Positions 6,843-55,619 of a stretch of DNA of 64,000 bases are shown here, piece by piece. The position numbers and the translations under genes are program-made. How positions within the stretch are numbered: the stretch's first letter is position 1; every line of letters starts with the position of its first letter. This stretch comes from an uncultured Candidatus Saccharibacteria bacterium (GTDB lineage: Bacteria; Patescibacteriota; 4484-211; JAGQKX01), in contig CAYMOT010000002.1 of assembly GCA_964392315.1 (NCBI GenBank), forward strand, positions 41,234 through 105,233. The letters are read 5' to 3'. Under the pieces are notes generated by a model. That model saw nothing but the letters and a program-made list of their open reading frames with translations, did not search any database and had not been told where the DNA came from.

Positions 6843-7457
6843 AGAGCAGGGAAGAGGGGAGAAGGACCCTATAAAACTCGGATAGTGTATAGCGGTGTAT
6901 ATTGAAAAGTAAGCATAAGTTATAAAACTATAGGTTATTAATAATTATAGGGTAATTGTCGTCATGTGGATAACTCAACTGCTAATAGGGGGTTAGTGGA
7001 GACGTTCTGAGAGGGGGTCCTTCCCTCGGTCCGAGAGGGGCTTTTTAGGCCGTTTTATACCAATAAAATGGAGCACTACACGAAATATTACAAAAAATAA
7101 AAACCTATTATTCCCGACTTGTGGGTGCCTGGCAAAAATTCATTGAAAAGCGGGAAATCGACATATAACGTCGCTAATCATACAATTCACGACGTTGTGA
7201 ACATTGCTTTTCTTCTACTCCCCCTCGCACGTGTCAACGAATAAATATGTATATATCCAAATAAACTAATAAGCTTATTAGTTTTTATTCCTCATTTGTG
7301 TATTGGTTTATTATAAATTTGAAATTTGTCATTTTTCCCCTCTCCCCCTCCCCTACCTCAAATAATAAACAAATCCGCCAGCTGGCGGAACAAATAAACT
7401 AATAAGCAAATTTATAAGAACATTTGCTTATTTGTAGTATTTGCTTATTATCTATAT

Positions 7458-8453
7458 ATGGCTCAAGGTCTGTCAGAGGCGTTCATTGACTTCATCGAAT
7501 ATTGTGAACTTGAGAGAGGTTTATCCCATCGTACCGCGGAAAAGTACCACTATCGTTTAATGCGGTTTTTGGATTGGCTTATGCAGGTGAATGGGATACA
7601 AACCCCGTCAATAAAGGATATTACGGAAGAAACAATTAAGGAATTCCGGCTGTATTTACATAGATTCGAAAGCGAACAAACCAAAAAGCAGTTAGCAGCA
7701 TCTACACAGCAACATTATCTGGTAGCACTTCGGGCATTTCTTAAATATCTCAAACGCAAGAAAGGCTTTGACCGTTTGTCTGCTGAGGATATTTTGCTGC
7801 CCAAGGCGCAGGGCAAGACGGTCACGTTTCTCAATGTTGAGCACCTTCAAAGCTTGTTTGCACAACCTGATACGCATGAATTGGCAGGAATGCGAGATCG
7901 CGCGATGCTTGAATTATTATTCAGCACCGGGTTGCGTGTCCAAGAATTGATTAATTTAAATAAAGAAGATATTCCTGAAAAAAGCTCCCAATTCACGGTT
8001 TTAGGCAAAGGTAACCGTTACCGTGTGGTATTTTTGAGTGACGTTGCACGCGATTGGGTGCAATTATACCTTTCACGCCGTATAGATGCATGGCTGCCTC
8101 TTTTTGTTAATACTCATGGTCTAAACCCGACGCGTTCTAAGGGGTCTAAAACCGACGAAAATAAATCAGACGTCCTAGATGACCCGGATGGTGAGAGATT
8201 TCGACTTACGGTTCGTTCTGTACAACGCATTATAAAAAAATATGCAAAAATGGCAGGGTTGAGTCAGGAAGTGACGCCGCATGTAATGCGTCATAGTTTT
8301 GCTACCGATTTGTTAACGCGTGGTGCGGATCTTCGATCTGTGCAGGAGCTTCTGGGGCATAAAAATGTCGCGACCACCCAAATCTACACGCATGTTACCA
8401 ATACACGGCTGCAGGAGGTACACAAAAAGTTTCATAGTACAATAGAGGAATAA
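7458..8453 (+). CDS. xerC: tyrosine site-specific recombinase, XerC/XerD family
   Basis: N-terminal SAM-like domain plus a catalytic domain with RVQEL, HVMRHSFATDLL and GHKNVATTQIYTHV (catalytic Tyr). Contains an atypical ~45-aa insertion (NTHGLNPTRSKGSKTDENKSDVLDDPDGERFRL). Confidence 0.8.
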   Translation: MAQGLSEAFIDFIEYCELERGLSHRTAEKYHYRLMRFLDWLMQVNGIQTPSIKDITEETIKEFRLYLHRFESEQTKKQLAASTQQHYLVALRAFLKYLKRKKGFDRLSAEDILLPKAQGKTVTFLNVEHLQSLFAQPDTHELAGMRDRAMLELLFSTGLRVQELINLNKEDIPEKSSQFTVLGKGNRYRVVFLSDVARDWVQLYLSRRIDAWLPLFVNTHGLNPTRSKGSKTDENKSDVLDDPDGERFRLTVRSVQRIIKKYAKMAGLSQEVTPHVMRHSFATDLLTRGADLRSVQELLGHKNVATTQIYTHVTNTRLQEVHKKFHSTIEE

Positions 8454-8467
8454 TAAATCAGTAACTT

Positions 8468-10795
8468 ATGAACTTTGTAACGAAGCTCGTACGCTATCCC
8501 ATTTGGTTTTATAAAGATGGGTTCCAGTTTTGGATCCGATTTTTTCCCAGGACAATAACGCTGATTGCGGACATGATGGGTATAAAACCTATTTTTAAGC
8601 ATTTTCTGTCGCCTTTCCGCAAAGATACATCACCCGTTGGGTATGGCATTGGAATTTTTATACGGCTTGTGTACGGTGGAGCGGGTATTATTGCCGTTGT
8701 TGTGGCCTTTTTTGGACTTATTGGTGCAATGTTGTTTTATTTCTCCATTCCACTCTTTGGGTTTTTGTTGATCATATCGATATCTGATTACACCTGGCCG
8801 AATATCTTAGGGGTGGTGATTTTGATAGCACCACTCGTGTTCTATATCTTTTTTGTAGCGTTAAGAAATCCCAGACTTACCAAAGACGGTTATCGAGTAG
8901 ACTGGGAGCGGGATGTGATGAAGCGGCTGCAGCTCAATCCTGAGGGTGCAATTGCCGCAAAAGAGCATGGTGATTTTGAGCAATTTTTAAAAGAGCGCGG
9001 ATTAACATTAGTTGATTATGAAATTGTTCGGCAGTGGGTTGCACATCAACGCTGGCTTCGTGAAAACTGGAAATACTGGCAGGATGGGCATTATAAGCGG
9101 TTTGTGGGTACAAACCTTGGGTGGGTTTCTGGGTTTATGCGTGAAGCGAAGTATTTTACAAAAAATTTGACGCAGGATCTTCCCCGCCGAAAAGTATACG
9201 AATGGCAAGGTTTGGATCAAATAATCGAGCGCATTTTGGCTGTTCTGGTGCGGGATACGCACAACAACGTGCTTCTGGTTGGTGATTCTGGGGTAGGGAA
9301 GACCTCGGTGGTATACCAAATCGCAAAAGTCATGAATGAGCGTGGTGGTTATCAAGTGATTGACCTAAATATCGCAGGTATGCTTGCGGGCAGTGGGCAT
9401 GAGGGTGAGTTTGAACGACGATTTATAAAAGCGATGCAGGAATTTCGCAATGCCGAGATTATTTTAGTAATTGAAGACATAGAAAGGCTGGTTTCTGGTG
9501 GAGTTGCACAATATTTTTACCCAGTTTTGGACGAGGCGGACTTCCCTATTATTGCTACAACAACTCCTAAAAGTTTGCGGGACGTGCTTGACCGTGAAAC
9601 GAAATTTTTAAATGCGTTTGAGAAAATTCCTGTAGAGGAACCAGATATTCCTGATGTCCTTTTTATATTGCAGGAGAAAGTCAAGGAATTTGAACGACGG
9701 TACGGTGTCTTTATCACGCATCAAGCACTCAAAGCGACCGTAGAAATCGCGGACAGATATATTGTTGATAAAGCATTCCCTTCTAAAGCCATTGATTTGC
9801 TCGATGAGGCGTGTGCATCAGTGGCAAACGGCAGATTTGAATCAGATAAGCAAAAAACAATTCAGGCAACACACATTGAACAAATGGTGAGCGAGATGAC
9901 CGGTGTCTCATTGGGTGAGGTGACCGAAAATGAGCAAGATAAGCTATTACAACTTGAGCAACTGTTGCATGGATTTATTATTGGCCAGGATGATGCAGTA
10001 CAGGAAATTGCTGCCGCGATGCGGCGTGCGCGTTCTGGACTCAAGTCCGACGAGCGCCCGATCGGGTCTTTCTTGTTTGTCGGTCCGACTGGTGTAGGTA
10101 AGACGCTTACTGCAAAGGTATTTGCTCAGGTATATTTTGGAGATCGCGAGAAAATGGTGCGGTTTGATATGAGTGAGTACTCAGAATTTGGGATGACGGA
10201 ACGATTTTTAGATCGAATTAGCGATCAAGTGCGTTCTACTCCTTTTACGGTACTACTTCTTGATGAGTTTGAAAAAGCGGACCAAAAGATTCATAACCTC
10301 TTTTTGCAGATATTGGAAGATGGCCGTGCTACTGACACACAAGGCAATGTCGTTGATTTCAAAAACACCGTTATTATCGCAACAAGCAATGCTCAAAATG
10401 TTGAGCAAGCTTTTAGTCCAGAATTGCGCAATCGCTTCGATGGGATCGTGACATATAAGCCGCTTAATCCCGATCAGATACTTGAGGTTGTCCGGCTTGA
10501 ATTAGGAGAATTGGGTAATAAGCTGTACGAGAAGGAAATTTCGGTTACCTTCTCCCCTACCCTCATTCAGGCGGTAGCGCAACTTGGATACGACCCCAAA
10601 ATGGGCGGACGACCTATACGCAGAGCTATTCAAGATAATATAGAGAATCCTCTTGCAGATGCACTGATCAAAGAAGACATTCACGCAGGTGATTCAATTT
10701 ATCTGGATTGGGAAAATGACCACCTGGTGATAAAAAATGAGGTTCCCGTCTCCCCTGCCCCTGACCAGCCAGCGGAGGGTGAGGTGCAGGTATAA
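8468..10795 (+). CDS. Clp/Hsp100-family double AAA+ ATPase (ClpB/ClpC-like) with an N-terminal multi-TM domain in place of the Clp N domain
   Basis: D1 Walker A LLVGDSGVGKTS. The D2 signature GQDDAVQEIAAAMRRARSGLKSDERPIGSFLFVGPTGVGKT...LLLDEFEKA...VIIATSN matches ClpB/ClpC D2. The first ~130 aa form 3-4 hydrophobic helices. Confidence 0.75.
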   Translation: MNFVTKLVRYPIWFYKDGFQFWIRFFPRTITLIADMMGIKPIFKHFLSPFRKDTSPVGYGIGIFIRLVYGGAGIIAVVVAFFGLIGAMLFYFSIPLFGFLLIISISDYTWPNILGVVILIAPLVFYIFFVALRNPRLTKDGYRVDWERDVMKRLQLNPEGAIAAKEHGDFEQFLKERGLTLVDYEIVRQWVAHQRWLRENWKYWQDGHYKRFVGTNLGWVSGFMREAKYFTKNLTQDLPRRKVYEWQGLDQIIERILAVLVRDTHNNVLLVGDSGVGKTSVVYQIAKVMNERGGYQVIDLNIAGMLAGSGHEGEFERRFIKAMQEFRNAEIILVIEDIERLVSGGVAQYFYPVLDEADFPIIATTTPKSLRDVLDRETKFLNAFEKIPVEEPDIPDVLFILQEKVKEFERRYGVFITHQALKATVEIADRYIVDKAFPSKAIDLLDEACASVANGRFESDKQKTIQATHIEQMVSEMTGVSLGEVTENEQDKLLQLEQLLHGFIIGQDDAVQEIAAAMRRARSGLKSDERPIGSFLFVGPTGVGKTLTAKVFAQVYFGDREKMVRFDMSEYSEFGMTERFLDRISDQVRSTPFTVLLLDEFEKADQKIHNLFLQILEDGRATDTQGNVVDFKNTVIIATSNAQNVEQAFSPELRNRFDGIVTYKPLNPDQILEVVRLELGELGNKLYEKEISVTFSPTLIQAVAQLGYDPKMGGRPIRRAIQDNIENPLADALIKEDIHAGDSIYLDWENDHLVIKNEVPVSPAPDQPAEGEVQV

Positions 10796-14120: not shown

Positions 14121-16070
14121 TTACACATCTAAATCTGCCTTTTTGGCATTTGCTTGAATAAAACGTTTCCTTGGTGCAACTTCTTCACCCATAAGCATAC
14201 TAAATATTTGGTCGGCCTCGCTTGCGTCATCAACGGTGATTTTTTTCAGGATACGGCGCTCAGGGTCCATAGTGGTCTCCCATAGTTGGTCTGCATTCAT
14301 TTCTCCAAGTCCTTTGAAACGGGTAATAATGAAATTCCGTCCTTGACCAGTAAGTTCTGCAATTTTTTCATCACGTTCTTCAATGGAATACACATAGGTA
14401 ATATCTTTACCCGATTTTATCTTAAATAGTGGTGGTTGAGCCACATACACATATCCGTTCTCAAGCAATGGGCGCATAAAACGAAACAAAAAAGTTAAGA
14501 CCAAAGCAGTGATGTGCTTGCCATCTACATCAGCATCATTCATGAGAATGAGGCGATGATAGCGAAGTTTATCCAAATTAAGATCCTCCCCTACCCCTGC
14601 CCCAAGGGCTATCAAGAGGTTTCGGAAGTTTTCATGATCAAGGATTTTCTCGAGACGCGACTTCTCTGCATTTAATGACTTTCCACGAAGCGGAAGTATG
14701 GCTTGGAATTTGCGGTCCCTCCCCTGTTTTGCTGGTCCGCCTGCAGAGTCTCCCTCAACAACAAATATTTCAGCTTGTGCAGGGTCCCTGCTTTGACAAT
14801 CAGCTAGTTTACCGGGCAAGGACGAGCTTTCTAGGGCGCTTTTACGTTGTACGGTTTCTTTTGCTTTCTGTGCAGCAAGGCGTGCCTCTTGCGCTATAAG
14901 GTTTTTTTGGATTATCGCGCTTGCTTCTGCTGGGTGTTCTTCAAGGTAGGTAGCAAGTGCATTACCGACAACGGTTTCGACTATCGGTCGAACCTCTTGA
15001 TTTCCTAGTTTTGTTTTTGTTTGTCCTTCGAATTGTAACCGTTCAGAGGACATCTTGATTGATACGATCGCTGTAAGTCCTTCCCGAATATCTTCACCGG
15101 ACAGCGTCGCGTCACCTTTGAGTAGTTCGTTCTTCTTGGCGTAATCATTGAGCACGCGTGTCAGGGCCGCCTTGAAGCCTGTCTCGTGAAACCCACCTTC
15201 TTTGGTCTCAATGTTATTGGTGAAAGAGAGGATATCGGTGTGATAGTCGTTGTGATATTGTAAGGCAACCTCAACAAAAACATCGTCTTTTTCCCCTTCC
15301 ACGCTAAATGGTGGTTGATGGAGAGGTGCGTGTGACTTGTTTAGGTACGTGACAAAAGATCGTATTCCTCCTTCAAAGTGAAATCCATATTTTTCAGGAA
15401 GTGGTTGAGTTCGATCGTCGGTAATAAGAAAGGTTAGACCTGGTGTGAGAAAAGCATAATTTCTGAGTAACTTCTTTATCCGGTCACTATCAAAAGTCAT
15501 ATCTTTGAAAATTTCGGTATCAGGCTTAAAAGTGAACGCAGTCCCACTATTGAACTCGGATAGTATCGCGGCAACCCCGTCTTTTGTCAGGTCTGTTTTA
15601 GAGAGTTCTTGTAAAGAAGTTGTTACTGTACCGCGTGAATATGATTGGCGATAGAATTTGCCTTCTTTTTTAACGGTCACCGTTGTGTCTTCAGAAAGTG
15701 CGTTAACAATGGATATACCGACTCCATGCAACCCTCCGGACACTTTGTAAGCCTTACCTTCAAACTTTCCTCCCGAATGAAGGGTAGTCATCATCACTTC
15801 AAGTGCGCTTTTTTTGTATTTCGGCATCTCGTCAACCGGAATGCCACGTCCATTGTCTATGACAGTCACAGCGCCATTGGGGTGAAATGTAACGAGTGTA
15901 GTGTTCGCATACCCAGCAAGTGCCTCATCAACGGCATTATTGATAATTTCTCTGAGCAAGTGGTGAAACCCATACTCCCCGGTATCGCCAATGTACATCC
16001 CCGGGCGCTTTCTGACGGGGTCCAAACCTTCTAAAACTTGTATTGAGCTTGCATCGTATCGATCAGGCAT
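14121..16070 (-). CDS. gyrB: DNA gyrase subunit B
   Basis: GHKL ATPase motifs (LHHLLREIINNAVDEALAGY; GLHGVGISIVNALS), TOPRIM EGDSAGG, 649 aa. Confidence 0.95.
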   Translation of the reverse strand: MPDRYDASSIQVLEGLDPVRKRPGMYIGDTGEYGFHHLLREIINNAVDEALAGYANTTLVTFHPNGAVTVIDNGRGIPVDEMPKYKKSALEVMMTTLHSGGKFEGKAYKVSGGLHGVGISIVNALSEDTTVTVKKEGKFYRQSYSRGTVTTSLQELSKTDLTKDGVAAILSEFNSGTAFTFKPDTEIFKDMTFDSDRIKKLLRNYAFLTPGLTFLITDDRTQPLPEKYGFHFEGGIRSFVTYLNKSHAPLHQPPFSVEGEKDDVFVEVALQYHNDYHTDILSFTNNIETKEGGFHETGFKAALTRVLNDYAKKNELLKGDATLSGEDIREGLTAIVSIKMSSERLQFEGQTKTKLGNQEVRPIVETVVGNALATYLEEHPAEASAIIQKNLIAQEARLAAQKAKETVQRKSALESSSLPGKLADCQSRDPAQAEIFVVEGDSAGGPAKQGRDRKFQAILPLRGKSLNAEKSRLEKILDHENFRNLLIALGAGVGEDLNLDKLRYHRLILMNDADVDGKHITALVLTFLFRFMRPLLENGYVYVAQPPLFKIKSGKDITYVYSIEERDEKIAELTGQGRNFIITRFKGLGEMNADQLWETTMDPERRILKKITVDDASEADQIFSMLMGEEVAPRKRFIQANAKKADLDV

Positions 16071-16232
16071 ACAGAAAAAATAAGCAAATAACCAAATAAA
16101 ACAGAAGTCATTTGCATATCTGCATATTGGATTATTTGCTTATTTTACAAACAAAATGACAACATTGCCATTGTACATTCGAAGACCATTGTAACACTTG
16201 GGTATGATCCGGGCAAAGAGAGCAGTGTTCCG

Positions 16233-16886: not shown

Positions 16887-17090
16887 GATAGGAAATAAAC
16901 AAATACAACAGATGCACATTAGTATTATTTGCGTATTGGTTGTTTACGTTACATTGACTCTCCTACGCCGAAAGTATAGCATGATTAAATAGACGAATAT
17001 GCAAATACTACCAATAAACAAATAAGCAAAATAAGTAGTACTTTGCATATTTATCATTTGCTTATTGGCTTATTTGTATATTAATTCCCA

Positions 17091-18809
17091 ATGGCTGAAC
17101 GAACTGATCTTGTAGATATACTGCTCCAAAATAACGTTATAAGTGAAGACCAGGCGTCGCAGGTACGGCTTGAACATATCAATACCGGCAAGACGCTCAA
17201 AGAAATTGTCCTCGAACGTAAACTTGCTGATACAAAGCAAATCGTGCAAGCCGAGGCACGAATTCTTAATGTCGAATATATTGACCTCGCCCAGAACGCG
17301 ATTTCTCCTGAAATTCTTACCAAAATTCCCGAGTCTGTAGCGCGCCACTATACGCTTATACCGGTTGAGATGCGCGATGGAAAGCTCGCAGTCGCGATGA
17401 AAGACCCGATGGATCTACAGATTATAGAATTCTTGGAGACAAAGACTGGGGATGAAATTCATCCCATGATGGCGGATGAAGATAGCATCAATAATGCCAT
17501 CTCAGAAATGTACTCGGTGGGTATTGAGCGGGAAGTGCGGGCTGCCCTAAAAGAAAGCGAAAAGGATGCAGCACGTGTCACCCAAAATATTGAGACGGTT
17601 GACGATCTGCGAAAAGCGGTAGAAAGCGCTCCAGTCGCGCGGATTGTCTCCACAATTTTTGAATATGCAATCAAGGTCGGTGCATCGGACGTACATATTG
17701 AACCGGGACCAAGCCACACCCGTATCAGGTATCGAATAGATGGCATTCTGCGTGAGCGGTTGGCACTCCCCCGCCGAGTACACGATTCGGTTGTTTCCCG
17801 TATTAAGATACTCTCGAGTATGAAAATAGATGAGCGCCGGATTCCGCTAGATGGACGGTTCACTTATTCGTTAGAAGATCAGGTTGTGGATATGCGTGTG
17901 TCTACCCTTCCGACTATGCACGGCGAAAAAGTGGTCGCACGACTACTCCGAAAATCAACGAAAGTTCCTACATTAGAAGAACTTGGGCTTCGCGGTCTCG
18001 CGCTCAAACAGTTCAAAGAGGTCATACGTAAGCCAAATGGTATCGTATTAGTCACTGGTCCTACCGGGAGTGGAAAAACTACCACACTTCGTACTGCTGT
18101 AAGTATGGTTAATTCTACCGACGTCAATATTGTGACTTTAGAAGACCCGGTTGAGTATGAAATTCCAGGAATAAATCAAGTACAAACAAATGAGCAAGCT
18201 GGTCTCACTTTTGCTTCTGGACTTCGAAGTTTCTTGCGACAGGACCCAGATATTATTTTGGTCGGTGAAATACGTGATAGCGAAACGATGCAGCTTGCGA
18301 TTCAGGCGTCCCTTACGGGGCATTTAGTCTTCTCTACCCTACACACCAATTCGGCTTCAGGGACGTTGCCTCGATTGATGGATATGGGAGCTGAACCATT
18401 TCTTCTCGCGTCTACGATGGAGCTTGTTCTTGCACAACGTCTTGTGCGTATTCTCTGCCCGGATTGTAGAAAAGAACATAAAGCAACCCCCGAAGAATTA
18501 GAGAAAATTCGGGAGATGCTCTCTGATTTAGCAGATAAATACGCTCCTGCGGAAAAGGAAATTTCCATATATCAGGCACAAGGATGTTCTAAATGTAACG
18601 ATACCGGATACATTGGTCGAATGGGCGTCTTTGAAGTATTGGTGGTCTCAGAGAAGATTGGAAGATTAATTTTAGAGCGCGAAACTGCGGATACTATTGA
18701 AAAGGCGGCTATAGAATCTGGTATGATAAGAATGTTGCAAGATGGTATATTAAAAGTGTTGGACGGGACCACTACGTTAGCTGAGATATTGAGAGTAGCG
18801 AAAGAGTAA
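17091..18809 (+). CDS. pilB: type IV pilus assembly ATPase PilB (GspE family)
   Basis: N-terminal GSPII domain, Walker A LVTGPTGSGKTTT, the tetracysteine motif CPDC...CSKC, 572 aa. Confidence 0.9.
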   Translation: MAERTDLVDILLQNNVISEDQASQVRLEHINTGKTLKEIVLERKLADTKQIVQAEARILNVEYIDLAQNAISPEILTKIPESVARHYTLIPVEMRDGKLAVAMKDPMDLQIIEFLETKTGDEIHPMMADEDSINNAISEMYSVGIEREVRAALKESEKDAARVTQNIETVDDLRKAVESAPVARIVSTIFEYAIKVGASDVHIEPGPSHTRIRYRIDGILRERLALPRRVHDSVVSRIKILSSMKIDERRIPLDGRFTYSLEDQVVDMRVSTLPTMHGEKVVARLLRKSTKVPTLEELGLRGLALKQFKEVIRKPNGIVLVTGPTGSGKTTTLRTAVSMVNSTDVNIVTLEDPVEYEIPGINQVQTNEQAGLTFASGLRSFLRQDPDIILVGEIRDSETMQLAIQASLTGHLVFSTLHTNSASGTLPRLMDMGAEPFLLASTMELVLAQRLVRILCPDCRKEHKATPEELEKIREMLSDLADKYAPAEKEISIYQAQGCSKCNDTGYIGRMGVFEVLVVSEKIGRLILERETADTIEKAAIESGMIRMLQDGILKVLDGTTTLAEILRVAKE

Positions 18810-19885: not shown

Positions 19886-19974
19886 TTAATAAACAAATAT
19901 GCATATAAACAAATATGCAAATAGGATGACATCTGCTTATTTGTAGAATTTGACTATTTGTTTATTTTCCCTTC

Positions 19975-21180
19975 ATGCAAACATACGTTTACACCGCAGT
20001 TACAAAAGAAGGCGACCGACGAAAAGGTGAACTTGAGGGTATTGACGAACGGCAAGTTGCCGAAATTCTCAGAGATCAAGATCTCATTGTTACGGGTATT
20101 GAACCGAAGCCAGAATATGATTTGCTCAAGCGTCTCAAAAGTGCACGTGGCGTGCCTGGTACGGATTTGGCAATTTTTACCCAGCAACTTGCTACCATGA
20201 TCAATTCGGGGCTTCCGATTACCCAAGGCCTTTCGATTCTGGAAAAACAAACTTCGAATGCAGTACTCAAAGAAGCAATTACCAAAATTTCCCAAGGACT
20301 CGATGCTGGGCAGAACATGCACCATATGTTGGGAGAATACCCGAACATATTCAATCGACTCTATATTTCACTCGTCCGTGCAGGAGAAGCATCCGGTAAG
20401 TTAGGAGAGATTTTGGAGGAAATGGGAGATGTGCTTGAGCGTGAGAATGAGTTTCGGGCACGGGTGAAAGGCGCGATGATTTACCCAATCATTGTGTTGA
20501 TCGTAATGCTTATTGTGATGCTGGTAATGATGATCTTTGTGATCCCCCAGTTGACCGAGCTCTATGAGGATCTCGATGTAGAGTTGCCACTTCCCACGAA
20601 GATATTTATTAGTATGAGTGATTTCTTTGTTGCAAATTGGTATTTGATCCCCATTGTTACGATAGGCGGCATATTAGGATATCGATGGTATTCCAGTACC
20701 TTGCAAGGCAGGTACCTCATTGATGAAATAAAGATGAAGATGCCAGTATTTGGGAAACTGCTTCTTCACGCACAATTGACGTCTTTTGCACGGACACTTT
20801 CTCTTTTGTTAACTGCGGGTATTCCTATGTTAGAAGCGATTGATATTTCAGGGGAGACGCTTACGAATATTCACCTGCGTGAAGCTGCTGCCCAATCAGG
20901 CAAAATGATCGAAAAGGGACGTTCTCTCTCCGAAACGTTTCGATCAAGTGAAAAGTTTCCTCCGTTGGTGGCGGAGATGGTCGCAGTCGGTGAACAAACG
21001 GGTAAGGTAGATGAGGTCTTGGTAAAGATTGCGGGCTATTTTGAAAACCTGGCAACGAAAGCTACAGAGAATCTTTCTGCCGCACTCGAGCCAATTATTA
21101 TTGTTATTCTTGCAATTGGTGTTGGTACGCTAGTCATCAGTTTTATTTTGCCTATCTACTCGTTGACAAGCTCATTTTAG
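19975..21180 (+). CDS. pilC: type IV pilus platform protein PilC (GspF family)
   Basis: Two GspF repeats with 3 TM segments, 401 aa. Adjacent to pilB and pilT. Confidence 0.88.
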   Translation: MQTYVYTAVTKEGDRRKGELEGIDERQVAEILRDQDLIVTGIEPKPEYDLLKRLKSARGVPGTDLAIFTQQLATMINSGLPITQGLSILEKQTSNAVLKEAITKISQGLDAGQNMHHMLGEYPNIFNRLYISLVRAGEASGKLGEILEEMGDVLERENEFRARVKGAMIYPIIVLIVMLIVMLVMMIFVIPQLTELYEDLDVELPLPTKIFISMSDFFVANWYLIPIVTIGGILGYRWYSSTLQGRYLIDEIKMKMPVFGKLLLHAQLTSFARTLSLLLTAGIPMLEAIDISGETLTNIHLREAAAQSGKMIEKGRSLSETFRSSEKFPPLVAEMVAVGEQTGKVDEVLVKIAGYFENLATKATENLSAALEPIIIVILAIGVGTLVISFILPIYSLTSSF

Positions 21181-32300: not shown

Positions 32301-32987
32301 TTAAGTTTCCCAGTCCTCAAGCGCAGTTTGGGCGGCTTCTATCTCTGCCTTTTGCTTACTCGATCCCTCCCCTGCCCCAACCTGTTTTTTGCCCAAAAAG
32401 ACGCCAACTTTGAAAGTTTTTTGATGATCAGGTCCCCACTCTTCCAAGACTTCGTAATGCGGTGTTACATTTAACACTTCTTGCGAAAGCTCCTGCAATT
32501 TGCTTTTCGCATCTTTATAGAGCTTGTTTTGGATTATGTGCTCAAGTTTTATGGTTACGTAGTTATGTACGACCTCCGTTACCTTTTGATAGCCGAATTC
32601 TAGATATATTGCACCAAGGAGTGCTTCAAACGTGTTGGCAAGCAGATATTCAGAATTTCTGCCATTGCTTGCTGCCTCTCCCCTACTCAGTAATAAATAT
32701 GCTCCCAAATCAAGCTGTCTGGCGCAATCGGCAAGGGATTGAGTATTTACAATAGCCGACCGATAGTTTGTGAGATCTCCTTCGGGGTTCTCGGGATACG
32801 TACGAAATAAGTGTTCAGACACGGCAAGTTCAAGGCAAGCATCCCCTAAAAATTCCAAGCGTTCATTAGATTGCAAGTGAAACCGAGGATTCTCGTTAAG
32901 ATATGAACGATGAATGAATGCGTTTAGCAGCAGGTCTTTATTTTGAAAATTGATGCCTAATTTTTCTTCTAAACTTTCAAGAGACAT
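32301..32987 (-). CDS. rnc: ribonuclease III
   Basis: ERLEFLGDACLELAVSEHLF catalytic signature plus a C-terminal dsRBD, 228 aa. Confidence 0.93.
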   Translation of the reverse strand: MSLESLEEKLGINFQNKDLLLNAFIHRSYLNENPRFHLQSNERLEFLGDACLELAVSEHLFRTYPENPEGDLTNYRSAIVNTQSLADCARQLDLGAYLLLSRGEAASNGRNSEYLLANTFEALLGAIYLEFGYQKVTEVVHNYVTIKLEHIIQNKLYKDAKSKLQELSQEVLNVTPHYEVLEEWGPDHQKTFKVGVFLGKKQVGAGEGSSKQKAEIEAAQTALEDWET

Positions 32988-33046
32988 AGGTAGGAATAAT
33001 ATACAAATAAGAAAATATGCAAATAGAATTCTGAATTAAATAGTTA

Positions 33047-33508: not shown

Positions 33509-33729
33509 TATTGCTTTTTTGCACTATCGACTTTAGTCACTTTTGTGTCTGTTTCTAAAACTTGGATGCCGTTGTACATGCCACAATTTTTACAGACACG
33601 GTGGGGCAATTTGAGTGAACCACACTCGGTACATGGTTGTAGTGCGGGTAAGGAAAATTTATTTTGCCAGGCTGTGTGACGATGTCTGCGTCTTGTTAAA
33701 CTTGGTTTCTTTTTTGGTACTGCTGCCAT
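33508..33729 (-). CDS. rpmF: 50S ribosomal protein L32
   Basis: [23 protein letters not shown]-terminus and the zinc-ribbon [18 protein letters not shown]. The ORF is longer; I chose the ATG at 33729. Confidence 0.9.
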
Positions 33730-33832
33730 GGATAAAAATAGACAAATATGCCTGCCTGCGCAGGCAGGCAAATAAGCAAATTTGCAAATAATATCGGTGT
33801 TATTATAGCGAAATTACATAAAAAATCCAGCA

Positions 33833-37553: not shown

Positions 37554-37807
37554 ATGTGAGATTGTACCAAGCAGGCTTGATACGCTGTGTAGGGATGTTA
37601 CGTCGTGTACTTAAATGTAGAGAAGTACAGATAAAATAGGCATGAGAACCATGCTAATTGAAATAATTATAGCGAGTACGAGGAATATTTTGTGATGTCT
37701 TCTGAAAAACTTGAGCATACTCAAATTGTAATCAACAAATAATCAAATAGGCAAATATACAAATGAACGAAAAAACCGGTCTGCCGACAAACAAGCAATA
37801 ACCTAAT

Positions 37808-38995
37808 TTACTCAGAAATTATCTTGAAAAACGTTCCTTTACCTATTTTAACTATCGATTCTGTAGGTTGCACCATGTATTGCATATCTTGTACCTTTTC
37901 ACCATCTATGCTGACTCCGCCCTGTTCTATCAATCTCCGCGCCTCTGATTTGCTCGTAATTTGTGCATGCATGACCAGAAAATCGACCAAATCGAGTTGT
38001 TGATTAAGAGAAATAGTCGCAATATCTGTAGGTACCTCGTCACTTTGTACAACGCGTGAGAATTTATTGCCCGCATCATTTGCTTGATTTTCATCATATA
38101 ACCACGCAACTATTTTAAATGCTAGGTCTTTCTTAGCCTGCAATGGGTTTGTTTGCACGAGATGGGTCAATTCTTCCGTTTGCTCAGCGAAAATCATGTC
38201 GTAATAATGTGAAATAAGATCATCGTGTATGGACATGACTTTACGATACATTTCAAATGGTTCGTCACGAAGGCTGATAAAATTGTTTTTGCTTTTACTC
38301 ATTTTTTTCCCATCAAGTCCCATCAAAAACGGACACGTTATGACAAACTTGTCTTTGTCCTTTAACTTCTTAAGCAAATCTCTTCCAGCCAACATATTAA
38401 ACGTTTGGTCAGTGCCACCAACTTCCACATCAACATTCATCATTACACTGTCGTATCCTTGCATAAGTGGATAGAAGAATTCATGCATATAAATAGGCTT
38501 GTTCTCTTTGATGCGTTCTTGGAACATATCTCTCTCAATCATTTGCTGAAGAGTAAAATGTGAGGAAAGCTCGATTAGGTCTGTGAATGTCAACGGTGCG
38601 AGCCACTGGCTATTAAACTTCATTTCCGCAGGATTGTTTGGATCATCAAACTGGAGCACTTTGGAGATTTGCTCTTTATACAATGCAGCGTTTTTTTGTA
38701 CCTGCTCCTCGGTCATTTTTACCCGTTCTGACAATTGATCAGTGGGGTCTCCGATTCGTGCCGTGAAATCGCCCAACAAGAATATGACCTTGTGTCCGAG
38801 TAGCCGGAACTGTTCGAGTTTCTTGTATACTACCGCGTGGCCCAAATGGACATCAGGTATTGTAGGATCGATGCCAAGGTAAAAGGTGAGCACTTCTCCG
38901 CTGGCGAGCCTTTTTGCAAGTGCCTCCTTAGATGGGTAAATTTCTGCTATATTATGAGTGAGAAGTGAGTTTATTTTTTCGAGATCGGTAGACAT
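37808..38995 (-). CDS. tyrS: tyrosyl-tRNA synthetase
   Basis: HLGH-type motif (DVHLGHAV), KMSKS, and a C-terminal S4 domain. The ORF starts at 39058; I chose the ATG at 38995 (MSTDLEKINSLL). Confidence 0.92.
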   Translation of the reverse strand: MSTDLEKINSLLTHNIAEIYPSKEALAKRLASGEVLTFYLGIDPTIPDVHLGHAVVYKKLEQFRLLGHKVIFLLGDFTARIGDPTDQLSERVKMTEEQVQKNAALYKEQISKVLQFDDPNNPAEMKFNSQWLAPLTFTDLIELSSHFTLQQMIERDMFQERIKENKPIYMHEFFYPLMQGYDSVMMNVDVEVGGTDQTFNMLAGRDLLKKLKDKDKFVITCPFLMGLDGKKMSKSKNNFISLRDEPFEMYRKVMSIHDDLISHYYDMIFAEQTEELTHLVQTNPLQAKKDLAFKIVAWLYDENQANDAGNKFSRVVQSDEVPTDIATISLNQQLDLVDFLVMHAQITSKSEARRLIEQGGVSIDGEKVQDMQYMVQPTESIVKIGKGTFFKIISE

Positions 38996-39127
38996 GCAGT
39001 TATTGTAACATGGGAGAAATAAACCAATATACCAATACGCAAATAAGCAAATATGCAAATATGCAAATGAAAAACGATTTGCTTATTTTCACATTTACTT
39101 GTTTTATTGGTAAAATTACACAATAGT

Positions 39128-44229: not shown

Positions 44230-45267
44230 TTAGAATTGTTCCAAAAACCTCAGGTCTCCTGAGTGAAATAACCGGATATCCTCGATGCCGTATTTGATCA
44301 TAACAAGCCTATCAAGGCCCATGCCCCACGCAAATCCACTATATTCTTCGTGATCGAGTCCCGCCATCTCTAATACATTTGGATGTATTGGTCCGGCCGG
44401 TACGAGTTCGATCCAGCGTTTGTTGCGACATGTTGAACAAGGAATATTTTCTTGATGACAGATAACACAACCAATCATAATTTCAAGCCCTGGCTCAACA
44501 AAGGGAAAATAGCTTGGCTGGATTTTTAACACAACATCCTGCCCATAAAATGTAGACAAAAATGCTTTGAGTGTACCGATAAGGTCACCCAAGGTAATTC
44601 CTTTGTCTACGTAGACACCTTCGATTTGGTAAAAGGTGTGTCCGTGCGTCGCGTCGGTTGCCTCATGGCGAAAGCACCGTCCAGGAACGATAGCGCGGAT
44701 AGGTGGTTGTGTTTCTTTGATTATTCTATGCTGCATTGCAGAAGTATGAGTAATAGGGATGTGGCCGTCTTCCGTCCAAAATGTATCCCACATGTCTCGG
44801 GCGGGGTGTCCAGTAGGGATATTCAGTGCTTCAAACACATGGTAGTCGTTGTCTATGGTTCGTGGTTCAATTATTTCAAAACCCATTCTCATAAAGATAT
44901 CCTCAGCGTATTCCCGTAGTTGTGTGATCGGATGCAGGTGTCCAACTGAAATAGTCTCTCCGGGTGCTGATATGTCTATCCAGGATTTATCTTTAAGCTC
45001 ATGTATCTGCTGTTGGCGAAGTTCGGCTTCACGTTTTTGGTATTCACCAGCAAGTGCCGCTAAAACTCGATTAATCTCTTTTCCAAGTTCTTTTCGTTCA
45101 TTTGTATCGCTAATATTCGGTAATTGGTCTTTAATATCCTTTAGAGGTCCTTTCTTTGCCAAATAGTTAACTTTGGTGGATTCGAGGGAGTCGAGAGATT
45201 GAGAGGATGCTATTTCGTGAAGTATAGTTTGTTCAAGTTGTGTAAGCTCTGTGATAAGTTGAGACAT
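44230..45267 (-). CDS. pheS: phenylalanyl-tRNA synthetase alpha subunit
   Basis: Class II aaRS motifs FRHEATDATHGHTFYQIEG and FPFVEPGLEI, N-terminal coiled coil. I chose the ATG at 45267. Confidence 0.95.
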   Translation of the reverse strand: MSQLITELTQLEQTILHEIASSQSLDSLESTKVNYLAKKGPLKDIKDQLPNISDTNERKELGKEINRVLAALAGEYQKREAELRQQQIHELKDKSWIDISAPGETISVGHLHPITQLREYAEDIFMRMGFEIIEPRTIDNDYHVFEALNIPTGHPARDMWDTFWTEDGHIPITHTSAMQHRIIKETQPPIRAIVPGRCFRHEATDATHGHTFYQIEGVYVDKGITLGDLIGTLKAFLSTFYGQDVVLKIQPSYFPFVEPGLEIMIGCVICHQENIPCSTCRNKRWIELVPAGPIHPNVLEMAGLDHEEYSGFAWGMGLDRLVMIKYGIEDIRLFHSGDLRFLEQF

Positions 45268-45375
45268 AGATGATGATGATGGTAATGCAAATATATACAA
45301 ATATGCAAATGTAAATTTGCTTATATGCCTGCCTGCGCAGACAGGTAATGTTTGATCATTTGCTTATTCCGTTTT

Positions 45376-48860: not shown

Positions 48861-48988
48861 ACCAAATATGCAAATAAGCAAATAAATATTGTGTGATATG
48901 CTGTCTTTTGTAATTCAACAGTTATAACTTCAGAGATCGCATTTGCATTGATTGAAAACCGATCCCCTACCCTGTACAATTTCTGTAC

Positions 48989-50469: not shown

Positions 50470-50796
50470 TTATTTAATTATCTGCCACGCAATCAGAGCT
50501 TCCAAGATCCACGGAATGATACCAAGGAGCAGTAAAACCATTCCCAGAAACCGACGCTTGTCAGCTTCTTTATATTTTTTCTTCTGAAGTGGATCAAAGG
50601 CTGGATTGTATGGTCCGATTTCTTTGGCGTTAATTTTTGGAGGCTTGTGACGGAGGGTCAATATTATTGCTATGATAATCAGCACACTGCCAATGACCAA
50701 ATACGCAGGTCGTATCAGGATATATACCTCAGTAATAACTGCGAGTGTTCGGGTTATTGCCTGTGCTGCAGCATCAGCAGGAGCGTTGAGAAACAT
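50470..50796 (-). CDS. hypothetical small membrane protein (2 TM)
   Basis: 108 aa with two hydrophobic helices flanking a Lys-rich loop. No family recognised. Confidence 0.4.
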   Translation of the reverse strand: MFLNAPADAAAQAITRTLAVITEVYILIRPAYLVIGSVLIIIAIILTLRHKPPKINAKEIGPYNPAFDPLQKKKYKEADKRRFLGMVLLLLGIIPWILEALIAWQIIK

Positions 50797-51775: not shown

Positions 51776-53067
51776 GATTCTTGAATTTCGGCGCCCAACA
51801 TTCTTAAATTCCCCAGAAAATTCGGATGAGCCCTGTAGATGCTATCTATGTTCTTGAGTTTTGAAGTACCATTAGCTGCCATTGCGGCCATCATAAGAGC
51901 AACCGTTGCTCGTATGATGGGAGGACACTGAATAGTCGCTCCTTTTAGTTCGGTAGGGCCAAGAACAATGATTCTGTGTGGGTCGGCCATCTCAATTTTT
52001 GCATTCATTTTTACTAATTCGCTAATCCAAAAGAGTGCAGCCTCGTAGACTTTATTCCAAAACCGTATGGGACCGTTCGTTTTGAGTGAAAGAGCAACCA
52101 TAAGCGGCAAGATGTCTGCAGGAAAATATGGCCATGGAGCAGCCTCTATGCGTGGAATGTAGTTTGTCGTAAATGGTTTTTCTGGCTCGAAGCTCTGATT
52201 TTTACGAACAATCGCAGTGTCACCCTCATATTCAATATTGACGCCTAGTTTTTTAAATTCATGCACAATTAGCGGAAAATGATGAGGAATTGCATTGGTC
52301 ACTCGAATTTCTCCATGTGTCATTGCACCTAGTGCAAGAAATGTTGCAATCTCCTGATGGTCTGATGAAACAGTACCTTCTCCCCCAGTGAGCTTTTCAA
52401 CACCTTCAATGACGAGCTTAGAAGAACCAATTCCTTCGATCTTTGCACCAACTGAATTGAGAAACACACAGAGATCTTGCACATGGGGCTCAGCAGCTGC
52501 GTTCATTAAGGTGGTTGTTCCCTTTGCTAAAACAGCAGCCATAATAACATTTTCAGTACCCGTGACACTCGCATAGTTAGGCCATAAGTCAGTTCCACGC
52601 ATACCGTTAGTTGCATCAAATATGATTTTGCCGTCATCCTCCTGTATATCTGCAGCCATGCTGCGTAGCATCGGAACGTGTGGATCAAGTTCTCGTATTC
52701 CAAGCGCACATCCCCCGACATTATTATTGATAACCACTTTTCCAAATCGGTGCATCATTGGCGCAAATAACAAAATGCTTGCGCGCATATCGATAGGTAT
52801 ACCAGTCTTCTCAAAACTTTCGAGGCTGAGGTTTTTATTAGAGATAGAGAGTGTTTTTTGTTTTTTGCTCCACGATACGGAGCCACCCAATGACCGTATC
52901 AAGCTTACGATCTTTTTTACGTCTTCAATTTCGGGGACATTATTGATTTTGACTGGTTCGTCGATCATGATCGTTGAACACAGCATTGGTAAAATCGCGT
53001 TCTTATTGCCAGAGGGGGTTATAGTTCCGTTGAGTTGTGCACCACCAGTGATGAGAAGGTCAGACAT
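51772..53067 (-). CDS. murA: UDP-N-acetylglucosamine 1-carboxyvinyltransferase
   Basis: MSDLLITGGAQLNGTITPSGNKNAILPML N-terminus of the EPT family, 431 aa. Overlaps the SET gene by 4 nt, convergently. Confidence 0.92.
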   Translation of the reverse strand: MSDLLITGGAQLNGTITPSGNKNAILPMLCSTIMIDEPVKINNVPEIEDVKKIVSLIRSLGGSVSWSKKQKTLSISNKNLSLESFEKTGIPIDMRASILLFAPMMHRFGKVVINNNVGGCALGIRELDPHVPMLRSMAADIQEDDGKIIFDATNGMRGTDLWPNYASVTGTENVIMAAVLAKGTTTLMNAAAEPHVQDLCVFLNSVGAKIEGIGSSKLVIEGVEKLTGGEGTVSSDHQEIATFLALGAMTHGEIRVTNAIPHHFPLIVHEFKKLGVNIEYEGDTAIVRKNQSFEPEKPFTTNYIPRIEAAPWPYFPADILPLMVALSLKTNGPIRFWNKVYEAALFWISELVKMNAKIEMADPHRIIVLGPTELKGATIQCPPIIRATVALMMAAMAANGTSKLKNIDSIYRAHPNFLGNLRMLGAEIQES

Positions 53068-53150
53068 AAAGATTAATTAATAAATAATATAAATATTCAA
53101 ATAAACAAATATGCAAAGTGTTAGCTCTGATTGTAGTCCATATTTGGCTA

Positions 53151-53945: not shown

Positions 53946-54030
53946 GATAGTAGTTATTTTACAATTCCTAGATGTCGGACACAACCGACGACAAGTATGC
54001 TACTATAGGTTACTTAGATAAAATGCATTT

Positions 54031-54930
54031 ATGTTCAGTACTCATACTATACGAAAAGGTGGGATATATCTCATTTTATCGGCGTTATGTTACAGCATAA
54101 TGCCGCTTCTTATTCGCACCCTTAATGATGCGGTTCCGCCATTTACGCAAGTTTTTCTTCGGTTAATGGTGGCTTTTTTCGTAGCATGTTTCTATCACAA
54201 AGCATTTTCGAAAAAGAAAATTAAAGCGAAAAAAAGCCTAAGAGAAGTGATCTCAGTGGGTCTCCTCGGAGTTATAGGATATGCGGGGTCAAGCATACTT
54301 TTTACGTATGCGGTGCTTAATGCATCGGTGAGTACCGTATTGTTCACGTTTTATACCTTTCCGTTCATTGTGCCGTTATTGGAATTTCTCGTGGCACGGT
54401 CACCAGTAAAAACAAGAGACATCTTTAGCCTTGCACTTGCCGGGGTCGGACTCTTGTGTATTTTATACCCGACGAGCGGTAATGGCTGGCAGTTAGGAAT
54501 AGTATTTGCGTTGGGTGCTGCGGTAACACAGGCATATTACCTTATTGGACGACGTGCGGTTCTTTCGTATACATCATCTGAACTCATGGTGGTTAACACT
54601 TTTTTGGGGTGGTTAAGTGCAGGCCTAGTGGCACTTATAACTGAACGCAATTTTTACCACGTACACGCACTTGCTCATCTTACCCTGCAGACGTATGTTG
54701 TAATAATTGTATTCGGCATCATTAACTTCCTGGGTTGGTTTCTTCTGAACAAAGGGTTCGAAAACATATCAGCGACACAAGGAGCGGTTATCTTGCTATC
54801 AGAACTAGTATTTGGTGTGATTATTGCACTGGTGTTTTTAAATGAAATTCCATCAGTACTTACTGTAGTAGGTGGTGTAAGTATTCTTTGCGCAAATGTA
54901 TATATTCTTCGGGATAAGACGGGCGGTTAG
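54031..54930 (+). CDS. EamA/DMT-superfamily transporter (10 TM)
   Basis: Two EamA-like 5-TM repeats, 299 aa. Confidence 0.65.
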   Translation: MFSTHTIRKGGIYLILSALCYSIMPLLIRTLNDAVPPFTQVFLRLMVAFFVACFYHKAFSKKKIKAKKSLREVISVGLLGVIGYAGSSILFTYAVLNASVSTVLFTFYTFPFIVPLLEFLVARSPVKTRDIFSLALAGVGLLCILYPTSGNGWQLGIVFALGAAVTQAYYLIGRRAVLSYTSSELMVVNTFLGWLSAGLVALITERNFYHVHALAHLTLQTYVVIIVFGIINFLGWFLLNKGFENISATQGAVILLSELVFGVIIALVFLNEIPSVLTVVGGVSILCANVYILRDKTGG

Positions 54931-55343
54931 TGTGCCGTTTTTCTTCGGAGATACTGCTCCAAGCTGGGTAATACATTGTAGTGGGCCAGTTCAGCGAGTG
55001 TGACCCATTTGTATTGGGTATGCTTTGGGTCCAGTTTGAGTGATGTTTCGGTTGTAGTTGCTTCATAGATGACGATTGTCTCACTGTGTCCGTCGGGTAA
55101 GGTGATAGTGAACTCGCCTGCGTTTTTCTCAATGTGCAGAGGTATCTTATATTGGGCCGAAATAACACCCTCTATCTCTTCAAATGTAGGTGTCCCCTCT
55201 CCTTCATCAGCAAGAGCCGTTGGTATTCCCCAGAAATGTGGAAAATACGCGTTGAGGTCTGAACGCTGTAAAATTAAAACTTGCCCATCATTCTGTAAGA
55301 GCACCTTGTGTAGTCGTTTTGGGGGTGTTATCTTTTGCTCCAT
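54927..55343 (-). CDS. Nudix-like hydrolase (degenerate Nudix box)
   Basis: VLLQNDGQVLILQRSD...WGIPTALADEGEGTPTFEEIEGV resembles the Nudix fold, but the REx2EE box is degenerate. 138 aa. Confidence 0.4.
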   Translation of the reverse strand: MEQKITPPKRLHKVLLQNDGQVLILQRSDLNAYFPHFWGIPTALADEGEGTPTFEEIEGVISAQYKIPLHIEKNAGEFTITLPDGHSETIVIYEATTTETSLKLDPKHTQYKWVTLAELAHYNVLPSLEQYLRRKTAH

Positions 55344-55490
55344 AGGCTTTATTATAGCACTAAACTTAGCACTGTTGGGTCATTTCTCGTGGTGGATTCG
55401 ACTATTTGTATAAAAAGCCATTCTTTCTTACGTAAAAACTGCATATAAATCTCGTTATGAATAAAAGAAATATAAGGACTTTCATATTTC

Positions 55491-55568
55491 TGGTGGGTGA
55501 TACAAGATTCGAACTTGTGACCTCCACCGTGTCGAGGTGGCGCTCTAACCAACTGAGCTAATCACCCA
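55491..55568 (-). tRNA. tRNA-Val (anticodon GAC) with encoded CCA
   Basis: The reverse complement folds as a cloverleaf: acceptor GGGTGAT/ATCACCC, D-arm GCTC-AGTTGGTTA-GAGC, anticodon arm CCACC-TCGACAC-GGTGG (GAC in the centre; position 33 is C, which is unusual), T-arm ACAAG-TTCGAAT-CTTGT, then ACCA. Confidence 0.8.
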
Positions 55569-55619
55569 GGAAGAATAAGCAAATACTACAAATAAACTTG
55601 CCTACCTACGCAGGCAGGT

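Follow-up and report, generated by a model that had tools for sequence, protein, structure and literature searches.

An intergenic 8-bp tandem repeat directed at gene starts in DNA of a candidate phyla radiation bacterium

Short sequence elements beside bacterial genes have been described in several forms. The leaderless genes of Actinobacteria and Deinococcus have sigma-70 promoters with the -10 box directly upstream of the ATG (Cortes 2013, as cited in PMC12641261); the Correia repeat-enclosed elements of Neisseria are dyad-symmetric intergenic elements with outward promoter-like ends; and short units of fixed period form the met-boxes of MetJ (8-bp period), the omega-repressor sites (7-bp heptads) and the hexamer arrays of Fur. 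Nearest to the element described here are the direct repeats of the heptamer TAACTGA, of untested function, which lie between genes in Beggiatoaceae, Cyanobacteria and Bacteroidetes (MacGregor 2015, PMC4679880), and for which a role in translation or RNA stability has been proposed in Beggiatoaceae (PMC4679880). Upstream promoter (UP) elements, by comparison, are A/T tracts with a period of about 10 bp located upstream of the -35 box (PMC12641261). Here, we examine arrays of an 8-bp unit, TATTTGCW, in a 64-kb stretch of DNA (the whole stretch analysed, hereafter the window). A preliminary description of this DNA had noted a recurring intergenic motif pointing at downstream genes, and had called it a lineage-specific promoter-like element.

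The motif is real and strongly non-random, and its tandem 8-bp nature had been overlooked. Words of the ATTTGCnTATTTG type occur in the window at about 100 times their chance frequency; CAAATAAGCAAAT, with at most one mismatch, matches 25 times against 0.21 expected, and ATATGCAAAT eight times against 0.38. The top four 8-mers of the window—ATTTGCTT, TGCTTATT, TTGCTTAT and TTTGCTTA—are all phases of ATTTGCTTATT. Nearly all matches are intergenic: this holds for 24 of the 25 13-mer matches, the sole exception (42721) lying within pheT, and for 33 of the 35 matches to ATTTGCNTATTTG (at most one mismatch), which fall in 5.6 kb of intergenic DNA, with the other two in 58 kb of coding DNA. Equal abundance in coding regions, one of two outcomes that the preliminary description had named as fatal to its proposal, was not seen. 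When the intergenic segments alone were shuffled with dinucleotides preserved, 20 ± 4 ATTTG/CAAAT cores were obtained against 68 observed, 0.04 core pairs exactly 8 bp apart against 16, and 0.016 copies of ATTTGnnTATTTG against 15; AT-richness thus fails to explain the motif. Its units, with the consensus TATTTGCW, follow one another in tandem at a strict 8-bp period, 2-6 to an array, and are built from a conserved 5-bp core and a variable 3-bp linker. Among neighbouring intergenic core pairs, 16 of 28 show the 8-bp spacing, and none does in coding DNA. Arrays of at least three cores spaced 7-9 bp apart number six in the window and zero in 1.30 Mb from 80 unrelated bacterial loci; moreover, the 22-mer at 7428-7449 is 100% identical to the reverse complement of 55574-55595. 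All twelve intergenic intervals first listed as holding copies do hold them. The accompanying statement that most intergenic regions do so was too strong: arrays occupy about 11 of the 21 gaps that measure 80 bp or more from 7.4 to 56 kb and, under a strict array definition, 10 of the 32 gaps holding a gene 5' end. Strict arrays are absent from all four convergent gaps, and no arrays occur at 1-7 kb, at 58-64 kb or in the 10 kb to the left of the window.

The arrays are polar with respect to genes. Upstream of gene starts the ATTTG strand is the sense strand, and the reported orientation toward the downstream gene held: in 10 of 12 cases (strict definition, p = 0.04) the array unit closest to a gene 5' end was directed toward it, and both exceptions concern the far side of a divergent gap. 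From last core to start the distance is 12-17 nt at eight of twelve junctions (xerC, gyrB, pilC, pilB, rnc, rpmF, tRNA-Val and an open reading frame, or ORF, of 35 aa), and greater at pheS, murA, tyrS and thrS. A shared 22-mer near xerC, pilC and tRNA-Val is present as described, at distances of 8, 16 and 6 nt rather than 8-15 nt, and the related copy before gyrB ends 8 nt, not 9 nt, from the ATG. The arrays and the features that adjoin them are as follows (positions in the window).

7421-7451, plus strand: xerC array, CATTTGCTTATTTGTAGTATTTGCT and then the -10-like TATTAT (7446-7451), with the ATG at 7458; includes the 22-mer 7428-7449.
7390-7411, minus strand: mirrored arm of the xerC junction, preceded by the hairpin CCGCCAGCTGGCGG at 7375-7388.
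16077-16101, minus strand: gyrB array, TTTTATTTGGTTATTTGCT, then TATTTT, 6 nt and the ATG at 16070.
16109-16146, plus strand: mirrored arm toward the holB 3' end, forming a 17-bp stem with the gyrB arm (-24.2 kcal/mol, z = -5.9).
16954-16982, plus strand: canonical promoter before pilB, TTGACT-N17-TAGCAT, conserved in five WWE3 genomes and separate from the repeat.
16997-17031, minus strand: holB-directed arm in the divergent holB/pilB gap.
17041-17084, plus strand: pilB array, terminal TATTAA, 6 nt, ATG at 17091.
19892-19922, minus strand: mirrored arm toward the pilT 3' end.
19930-19968, plus strand: pilC array, terminal TATTTT, 6 nt, ATG at 19975.
32996-33026, minus strand: rnc array, terminal TATTAT, 8 nt, ATG at 32987.
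33735-33791, minus strand: rpmF (L32) array, interrupted by a GC palindrome at 33751-33768; ATG at 33729.
Proximal part of the rpmF array, minus strand: CATATTTGTC, then TATTTT, 5 nt and the ATG.
37725-37765, minus strand: four-unit array before the 35-aa ORF (37718-37611), upstream of recG; TACAAT, 6 nt, ATG.
39024-39069, minus strand: tyrS array, upstream of the extended -10 TGTTACAAT, 6 nt, ATG at 38995.
39076-39090, plus strand: short arm toward the PBP1a gene.
45285-45311, minus strand: pheS array, with the last slot, TATATT, about 24 nt from the ATG at 45267.
45314-45370, plus strand: distal arm units around the GC palindrome 45328-45345, downstream of a 68-aa ORF.
48862-48885, minus strand: thrS three-unit array, 77 nt upstream of the start.
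53084-53118, minus strand: murA array; ATG at 53067.
55572-55596, minus strand: tRNA-Val array (22-mer copy), then TATTCT; ends 4-6 nt from the 5' end at 55567.
55601-55634, plus strand: GC hairpin (55601-55618) and mirrored arm over the tig stop codon, which together look like a terminator for tig.

Aligning the promoters on the hexamer that follows the last repeat gave TTTG-nn-TAnnn(T/A) in 16 of 19 cases. This terminal hexamer occupies the next repeat slot and never carries the repeat's G in last position; among arms facing 5' ends, 11 of 17 have TAnnn(T/A) in this slot, compared with one of eight facing 3' ends. At xerC, gyrB, pilC, pilB, rnc, rpmF and the 35-aa ORF, TAnnnT or TAnnnA stands 5-8 nt from the ATG; in a sigma-70-type promoter, a TAnnnT hexamer is expected about 6-8 nt before the transcription start. 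Core promoters of the window that have no repeat in them share this geometry, namely those of pilM (TTGACA-N17-CATACT-N6-ATG), of the start at 50796 (TATAAT-N6-ATG), of tyrS (TGTTACAAT-N6-ATG) and of recG (TGGTACAAT-N7-ATG). Shine-Dalgarno motifs are nearly absent from the window, in which start codons are backed by full-length homologues. From this near-absence and the geometry common to array and canonical promoters, we infer that many first genes of operons are probably leaderless, with the arrays at roughly -15 to -60 of their promoters. In this setting gene callers go astray, a matter of some value for annotation: mechanical ORF calling carries tyrS and pheS into their arrays via TTG codons (39058 and 45300, minus strand), the real starts being the ATG codons at 38995 and 45267.

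The reading that we favour, at a little under an even chance, is that leaderless genes and one tRNA have sigma-70-type promoters whose upstream half consists of the arrays, and that these lie in compact stop-to-start modules. Initiation of transcription is indicated by the position before a tRNA gene, the orientation of the units, their fixed distance from the start, the altered last unit, the lack of arrays in convergent gaps and the fact that gyrB has to be expressed. The earlier argument from the tRNA proved sound, as a role in translation alone is excluded by a copy that lies 6 nt from a tRNA gene. In such a promoter, the repeat itself could be taken for a -10 box with G in the last position; changed to TAnnnT in the promoter-proximal slot, it would become a usable -10 hexamer 5-8 nt from the ATG. 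The preceding repeat would then set TTTG two bases upstream of the hexamer, and the third repeat upstream would set TTGCWT, a -35-like word, 15-16 bp away. This stretch would be bound by RNA polymerase, perhaps aided by an accessory protein, and transcription would begin at the start codon or immediately upstream of it. The arrays gain and lose units through replication slippage, and near-identical array cassettes recur at unrelated genes. Together with a weaker mirrored arm and a central hairpin, an array fills the entire stop-to-start gap, as a compact module that would terminate one transcription unit and begin the next. What the sequences show directly are the statistics, the 8-bp period, the polarity, the geometry, the relation to other genomes and the 8-bp indel among strains; transcription start at the arrays, the relevant contacts and any terminator role are what we infer from them.

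Several observations weigh against this promoter reading. Array placement relative to the core promoter varies—overlapping the -35 region in some cases, upstream of a canonical -35 TTGACA in a metagenomic contig (L168), before the extended -10 at tyrS and after the conserved canonical promoter at pilB. As candidate -35 boxes the arrays offer only TTGCWT or TTGTAG (3/6 matches), at 15-16 bp and not the 17 (± 1) bp of a canonical promoter; this spacing follows from the 8-bp period, and the two are inseparable. Nor is an extended -10 formed, the TG being 1 bp too far from the hexamer in 16 of the 19 aligned promoters, although true TGnTAnAAT is present at array-free promoters of the window. A generic sigma-70 scan of the window reports no array sites, and at tRNA-Val just 4 nt separate the TAnnnT from the mature 5' end, less than a normal start would need. 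There are also mirrored arms, which face the 3' ends of genes, and this feature is strong in Woesebacteria. Finally, no arrays were found in the sister genomes L085, L087, L088, L210 and L211, or in 17 kb adjoining the array region of the same genome. Because ordinary TTGACA-N17-TAnnnT and TGnTAnAAT promoters (pilM, tyrS, recG) are present in the window, the arrays are in any case not the basic promoter code of the lineage. What looks like a promoter at the array junctions is an ordinary -10-type hexamer, with the repeats at variable distances upstream. The earlier label of a lineage-specific promoter-like element is only partly correct, since the arrays coexist with ordinary sigma-70 promoters and are found in Woesebacteria too.

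The nearest named PilC homologues (at most 74% identity) belong to candidate division WWE3 and the TyrS homologues to Patescibacteria, which identifies the source as an uncultivated bacterium of the candidate phyla radiation (CPR), in candidate division WWE3. Contigs identical to the window are present in metagenome runs ERR2586215-7, and a gyrB search of genome contigs (best identity 55%, matches across all phyla) gained no relatives. The comparison with related genomes that had been recommended earlier supported conservation only in part. Arrays are kept in L083 and L084 (87% PilC identity) in degenerate form, with TAnnnT-N5-ATG at the gyrB, pilB, pilC and rnc junctions, but are absent from the other WWE3 relatives L085/L211, L087, L088 and L210 (68-74% identity), and yet present in Woesebacteria. 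L209 (75% TyrS identity) carries CATTTGCTTATTTGTAGTATTTGCATATT upstream of rsmD, at a non-orthologous junction, and this is the same 28-mer as at xerC, pilC and tRNA-Val of the window. Genomes that lack arrays have just 3-17 nt between pilT and pilC and between holB and gyrB; the arrays therefore stand in newly widened gaps before essential genes, and where the enlarged gap precedes gyrB, something in it must start transcription. The holB/pilB gap has a canonical TTGACA-N17-TAGCAT promoter in five of five genomes, with an array between promoter and ATG in the window and in L083. As a separate observation, L210, a WWE3 relative of 71% identity without 8-bp arrays, has recurrent intergenic words TTTTGCAYT / AAAATGCAAA, which may represent a related motif with the same TTTGC core.

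A metagenome scan with a three-unit array returned at least 120 contigs, a heterogeneous set without overall orientation bias. Most were unrelated—signal-peptide coding repeats, long minisatellites or very AT-rich genomes—and only L089, L094, L105, L107, L119 and L168 resemble the window. The architecture of L094, L119, L168 and L089 is stop, (CAAATCTn)n, A-T hairpin, (ATTTGCTT)n, TAnnnT, ATG; L119 and L168 encode proteins that cluster with Candidatus Woesebacteria at no less than 90% identity. Between L094 and L119 (70% nucleotide identity), the windows around array and promoter are the best conserved, at 90-94%, and the same module, about 75 bp long, is found again in L168 at another junction. 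Among the Woesebacteria junctions, one has the sequence TTGCTT-N17-TAGTAT-N6-ATG and another an array upstream of a canonical TTGACA-N17-TACCAT. In L160 an array lies downstream of TTGACA-N17-TACTAT. Small palindromic inserts (GCGAAGCTTGGCCAAAT...ATTTGGT and TAGGCGAAGCCGCCTA) are nested in the arrays of L119 at 960-990, 1840-1870, 1925-1940 and 7020-7050; they are absent from the orthologous L094 junctions, and the junction modules are therefore insertion hot spots. Closer to the window, L296 and L297 are one 8-bp unit shorter in the tyrS array, at a point upstream of its extended -10, and between strains 98.9% identical over 7.2 kb the sole indel is exactly one 8-bp unit of that array. No array differences separate the near-identical strains L081 and L082 from the window, or L084 from L083, and hypervariability between such strains was rejected on these comparisons. 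With absence in WWE3 relatives at 68-75% protein identity and near-identical arrays in Woesebacteria, the arrays are not strictly lineage-specific.

A wider proposal, which we put forward tentatively and consider possible but doubtful, is that several lineages of the CPR, including Woesebacteria and at least one WWE3 clade, share an undescribed junction module: polar 8-bp lattices radiating from a hairpin, read by a protein or by RNA polymerase in an unusual mode, which would end the upstream transcript and launch a leaderless one, and which would spread as an operon-splitting cassette tuned by slippage.

Among the rival explanations, the strongest—unlikely in our judgement, though to be taken seriously—is that the arrays are operators for a global regulator or nucleoid protein that recognises their sequence. 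Each ATTTG core would be occupied by one subunit, and the subunits would polymerise outward on the 8-bp lattice from a central nucleation point, so as to repress, activate or insulate many housekeeping promoters. Contiguous fixed-period units over promoters, the hallmark of tandem operator arrays, are indeed found, and a strict 8-bp period with a conserved 5-bp core and a variable 3-bp linker is what a cooperative lattice would produce. Outward-pointing dyads are seen at about 14 of 15 junctions, the position relative to the -10 varies, and the arms of Woesebacteria keep core and period despite different linkers (CAAATCTA versus ATTTGCTT) and poor RNA pairing. Gain and loss of one protein gene would fit the patchy distribution (a WWE3 sub-lineage and Woesebacteria), and the arrays stand at replication, translation and cell-wall genes, not at accessory genes. 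The only regulator in the window, however, is a TrmB-like helix-turn-helix protein, and no candidate was found there; substitutions between strains strike the cores at an approximately neutral rate; and promoter function more simply explains the fixed distance of 12-17 nt and the change of the last unit to TAnnnT. The operator model is kept alive by the weak or mis-spaced -35-like and TG elements, the variable placement, the 3'-facing arms and the patchy phylogeny.

It is improbable that the dyads—A-rich arm, hairpin, T-rich arm—serve mainly as bidirectional terminators or insulators, their proximity to starts merely reflecting short gaps. Many junctions do carry a weaker mirrored arm, and on the plus strand, as on the sense strand, the order is always CAAAT arm, centre and ATTTG arm, with the arms pointing outward. 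The centre is a short loop or hairpin, and stop codons often fall inside the first A-arm unit. As RNA, the dyads fold better than shuffled sequences, at -24.2 kcal/mol upstream of gyrB (z = -5.9), followed by U6, and at -24.1 kcal/mol at the tig/tRNA-Val junction (z = -4.6), and GC hairpins stand between the arms at three junctions. A stable G+C-rich hairpin with a U-tract after it, the form of an intrinsic terminator, is seen at the tig/tRNA-Val, rsmD/rpmF and holB/gyrB junctions. Yet convergent gaps, which need terminators only, are free of arrays, and several arrays are one-armed (rnc, murA, thrS and 37725-37765). In Woesebacteria the arms pair poorly and the central hairpin has A-T pairs only. 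A terminator directly before the essential gyrB would still require a promoter, and the periodic G/C of the 'U-tract' would go unexplained. A terminator or insulator role of the dyads may nonetheless coexist with promoter function. The recurrent ATCATTTGCTTATT, we observe in passing, is one mismatch from WATCARNNNNTTR, the consensus for integration host factor.

Still less probable is a selfish or purely mutational minisatellite, in which slippage would make functionless 8-bp repeats that are tolerated where harmless, perhaps hitch-hiking with small mobile palindromes. The exact one-unit difference as the only indel between the 98.9%-identical strains fits this view, as do the presence/absence polymorphism of an adjoining GC palindrome, the nested palindrome insertions of L119, the patchy phylogeny and the occurrence of one 28-mer at non-orthologous sites in the window and L209. 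Against it stand the polarity toward starts and the fixed distance, the same unit in two distant CPR groups with zero arrays in 1.3 Mb of other bacteria, and the higher conservation of array stretches than of flanking coding DNA; target-site duplications or sharp element ends were not found, and we know of no transposase linked to TATTTGCW arrays. A purely neutral minisatellite is unlikely because of the polarity and the cross-phylum identity of the unit.

Finally, that the arrays are transcribed U-rich 5' leaders acting on translation or RNA stability (as S1-type enhancers or sites of a post-transcriptional regulator) is very improbable: the arrays do take the place of a Shine-Dalgarno motif just before start codons, would lie within the leader at pilB, given its conserved upstream promoter, and are downstream of TTGACA-N17-TACTAT in L160, in analogy to the Beggiatoaceae TAACTGA repeats (PMC4679880), but one copy is 6 nt from a tRNA gene, arms face 3' ends, and TAnnnT-N5-8-ATG matches the array-free leaderless promoters of the same genome.

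Turning to the setting, the window has a G+C content of about 42% up to 57.5 kb and of 54-57% beyond. It holds compact housekeeping genes, which encode a XerC-like recombinase and a ClpB-like protein and include gyrA, gyrB and holB, pilB, pilT, pilC and a pilus cluster, and rnc, nusB, rpmF, rsmD, recG, tyrS, PBP1a, pheST, thrS, murA, tig and tRNA-Val. Rfam matched only tRNA-Val in the window, and nothing in 6800-7460. Positions 1-7400 carry a VirD4/TraG-like coupling protein (2500-5109), several ORFs without family match and, at 7458, the XerC-like recombinase, with no arrays; this part may be an integrated mobile element. At 58000-64000, where the G+C content rises to 54-57%, the ORFs lack Pfam matches and arrays are absent, which would indicate either foreign DNA or a chimeric assembly join. 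A segment of about 530 bp without ORF or Rfam match (6843-7370), with a pyrimidine-rich run (TTCCCCTCTCCCCCTCCCCTACC) and a hairpin at its end, may be a non-coding RNA or a gene remnant. Between tyrS and recG, the unannotated 35-aa ORF (37611-37718, minus strand) encodes a hydrophobic peptide (MLKFFRRHHKIFLVLAIIISISMVLMPILSVLLYI) and is conserved in L209, L210, L211, L295 and L296, with an array and TACAAT-N6-ATG in front.

Further repeats were seen. The 10-mer CTCCCCTACC (at most one mismatch) has 19 copies across the window against 1.8 expected, for example at 7348, 10552, 11648, 12275, 14586, 35667, 37509, 42612 and 51145; 16 of the 19 are on the plus strand regardless of gene orientation and most lie within genes, and the word is chromosome-polar, of the KOPS, Chi or uptake-sequence type. 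A GC palindrome, (T)GCCTGCCTGCGCAGGCAGG(CA), adjoins arrays at 33751-33768, 45328-45345 and 55601-55618, and also occurs in L085 (near 9930) and L086, that is, in another WWE3 species too. Strain L295 (98.1% identical) has a 19-bp GC palindrome insert after the tyrS stop codon, at window position 37797 and beside an array other than that of tyrS, which is absent from the window and from L296. Such presence or absence among strains, together with the occurrence in another WWE3 species, points to a small mobile hairpin resembling repetitive extragenic palindromic elements. A second recurring hairpin element, CAAATCCGCCAGCTGGCGGA, lies at 7370-7404 and 56759-56793, and also near 1540 in L089, an unrelated array-bearing metagenome contig.

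Much of bacterial diversity belongs to the CPR, whose members have tiny genomes with few recognisable regulators; to our knowledge, experiments have revealed almost nothing of how they switch their genes on. A recurring and easily recognised cis-element at the starts of replication, translation, cell-wall and pilus genes offers a testable entry point into CPR transcription. The arrays would aid the prediction of transcription units and leaderless starts in CPR genomes, array DNA would serve as bait for the protein that reads it, and the arrays would exemplify regulatory DNA that is copied between junctions and resized by slippage.

Set against known systems, the arrays resemble UP elements, the sites of the α-subunit C-terminal domain (PMC12641261), as AT-rich DNA upstream of housekeeping and tRNA core promoters, but differ in their 8-bp period, their conserved G(C) and their frequent overlap with the -35 region and spacer. 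This assignment was rejected, as the arrays usually reach -15, beyond the -40 to -60 that UP elements occupy, and are upstream of the core promoter only in L168 and at tyrS. Other candidates were likewise set aside: the Bacteroidota promoter (-33 TTTG / -7 TAnnTTTG), as the unit TATTTG puts TA beside TTTG and the host, a WWE3 bacterium, uses TTGACA/TATAAT; a DNA uptake sequence, as 33 of 35 matches are intergenic, tandem and polar relative to genes; a sigma-54 site (TGGCAC-N5-TTGC) on spacing; and the DnaA box on sequence. Regarding contingency loci, one 8-bp unit indel was seen at the tyrS array, upstream of the extended -10, and none between L083 and L084 or among L081, L082 and the window. 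Viral scans stayed near chance, with a single site per contig, and gave no evidence that phages use the motif as a promoter; nor was a description of it found in the literature searched on CPR promoters, leaderless genes and intergenic repeats.

With leaderless sigma-70 promoters the arrays share TAnnnT 5-8 nt before the ATG and the lack of a Shine-Dalgarno motif, but upstream of the hexamer they have a periodic repeat where such promoters have a TTGACA -35 or a TGn extended -10. Like MetJ, omega and Fur lattices, they consist of short fixed-period units, direct and inverted, overlapping promoters; they differ in having far more sites per genome and a polar unit oriented toward genes. Correia elements and putative mobile promoters (PMC3488235) likewise show dyads, outward promoter-like ends, hairpin potential and the same cassette before unrelated genes, whereas the arrays lack defined ends and target duplication and consist of tandem 8-bp units in variable number. 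Similarly, compared with miniature inverted-repeat transposable elements, they have inverted arms and the recurring module of about 75 bp in Woesebacteria, but neither sharp ends nor duplications. Of the phenomena described so far, the TAACTGA heptamer repeats come closest. Both have a short unit in 2-6 copies per set and many sets, mostly a few nt before starts, where they replace the ribosome-binding site; both precede genes with no common function, essential ones included, and both are patchy over distant lineages. The TATTTGCW arrays differ in their 8-bp instead of 7-bp unit, their sequence and their CPR hosts; moreover, they end in a -10-like hexamer, precede a tRNA and come with mirrored arms and hairpins, and a transcriptional rather than a translational role is favoured for them. 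On this comparison, the arrays are a new variety of promoter-associated intergenic repeat.

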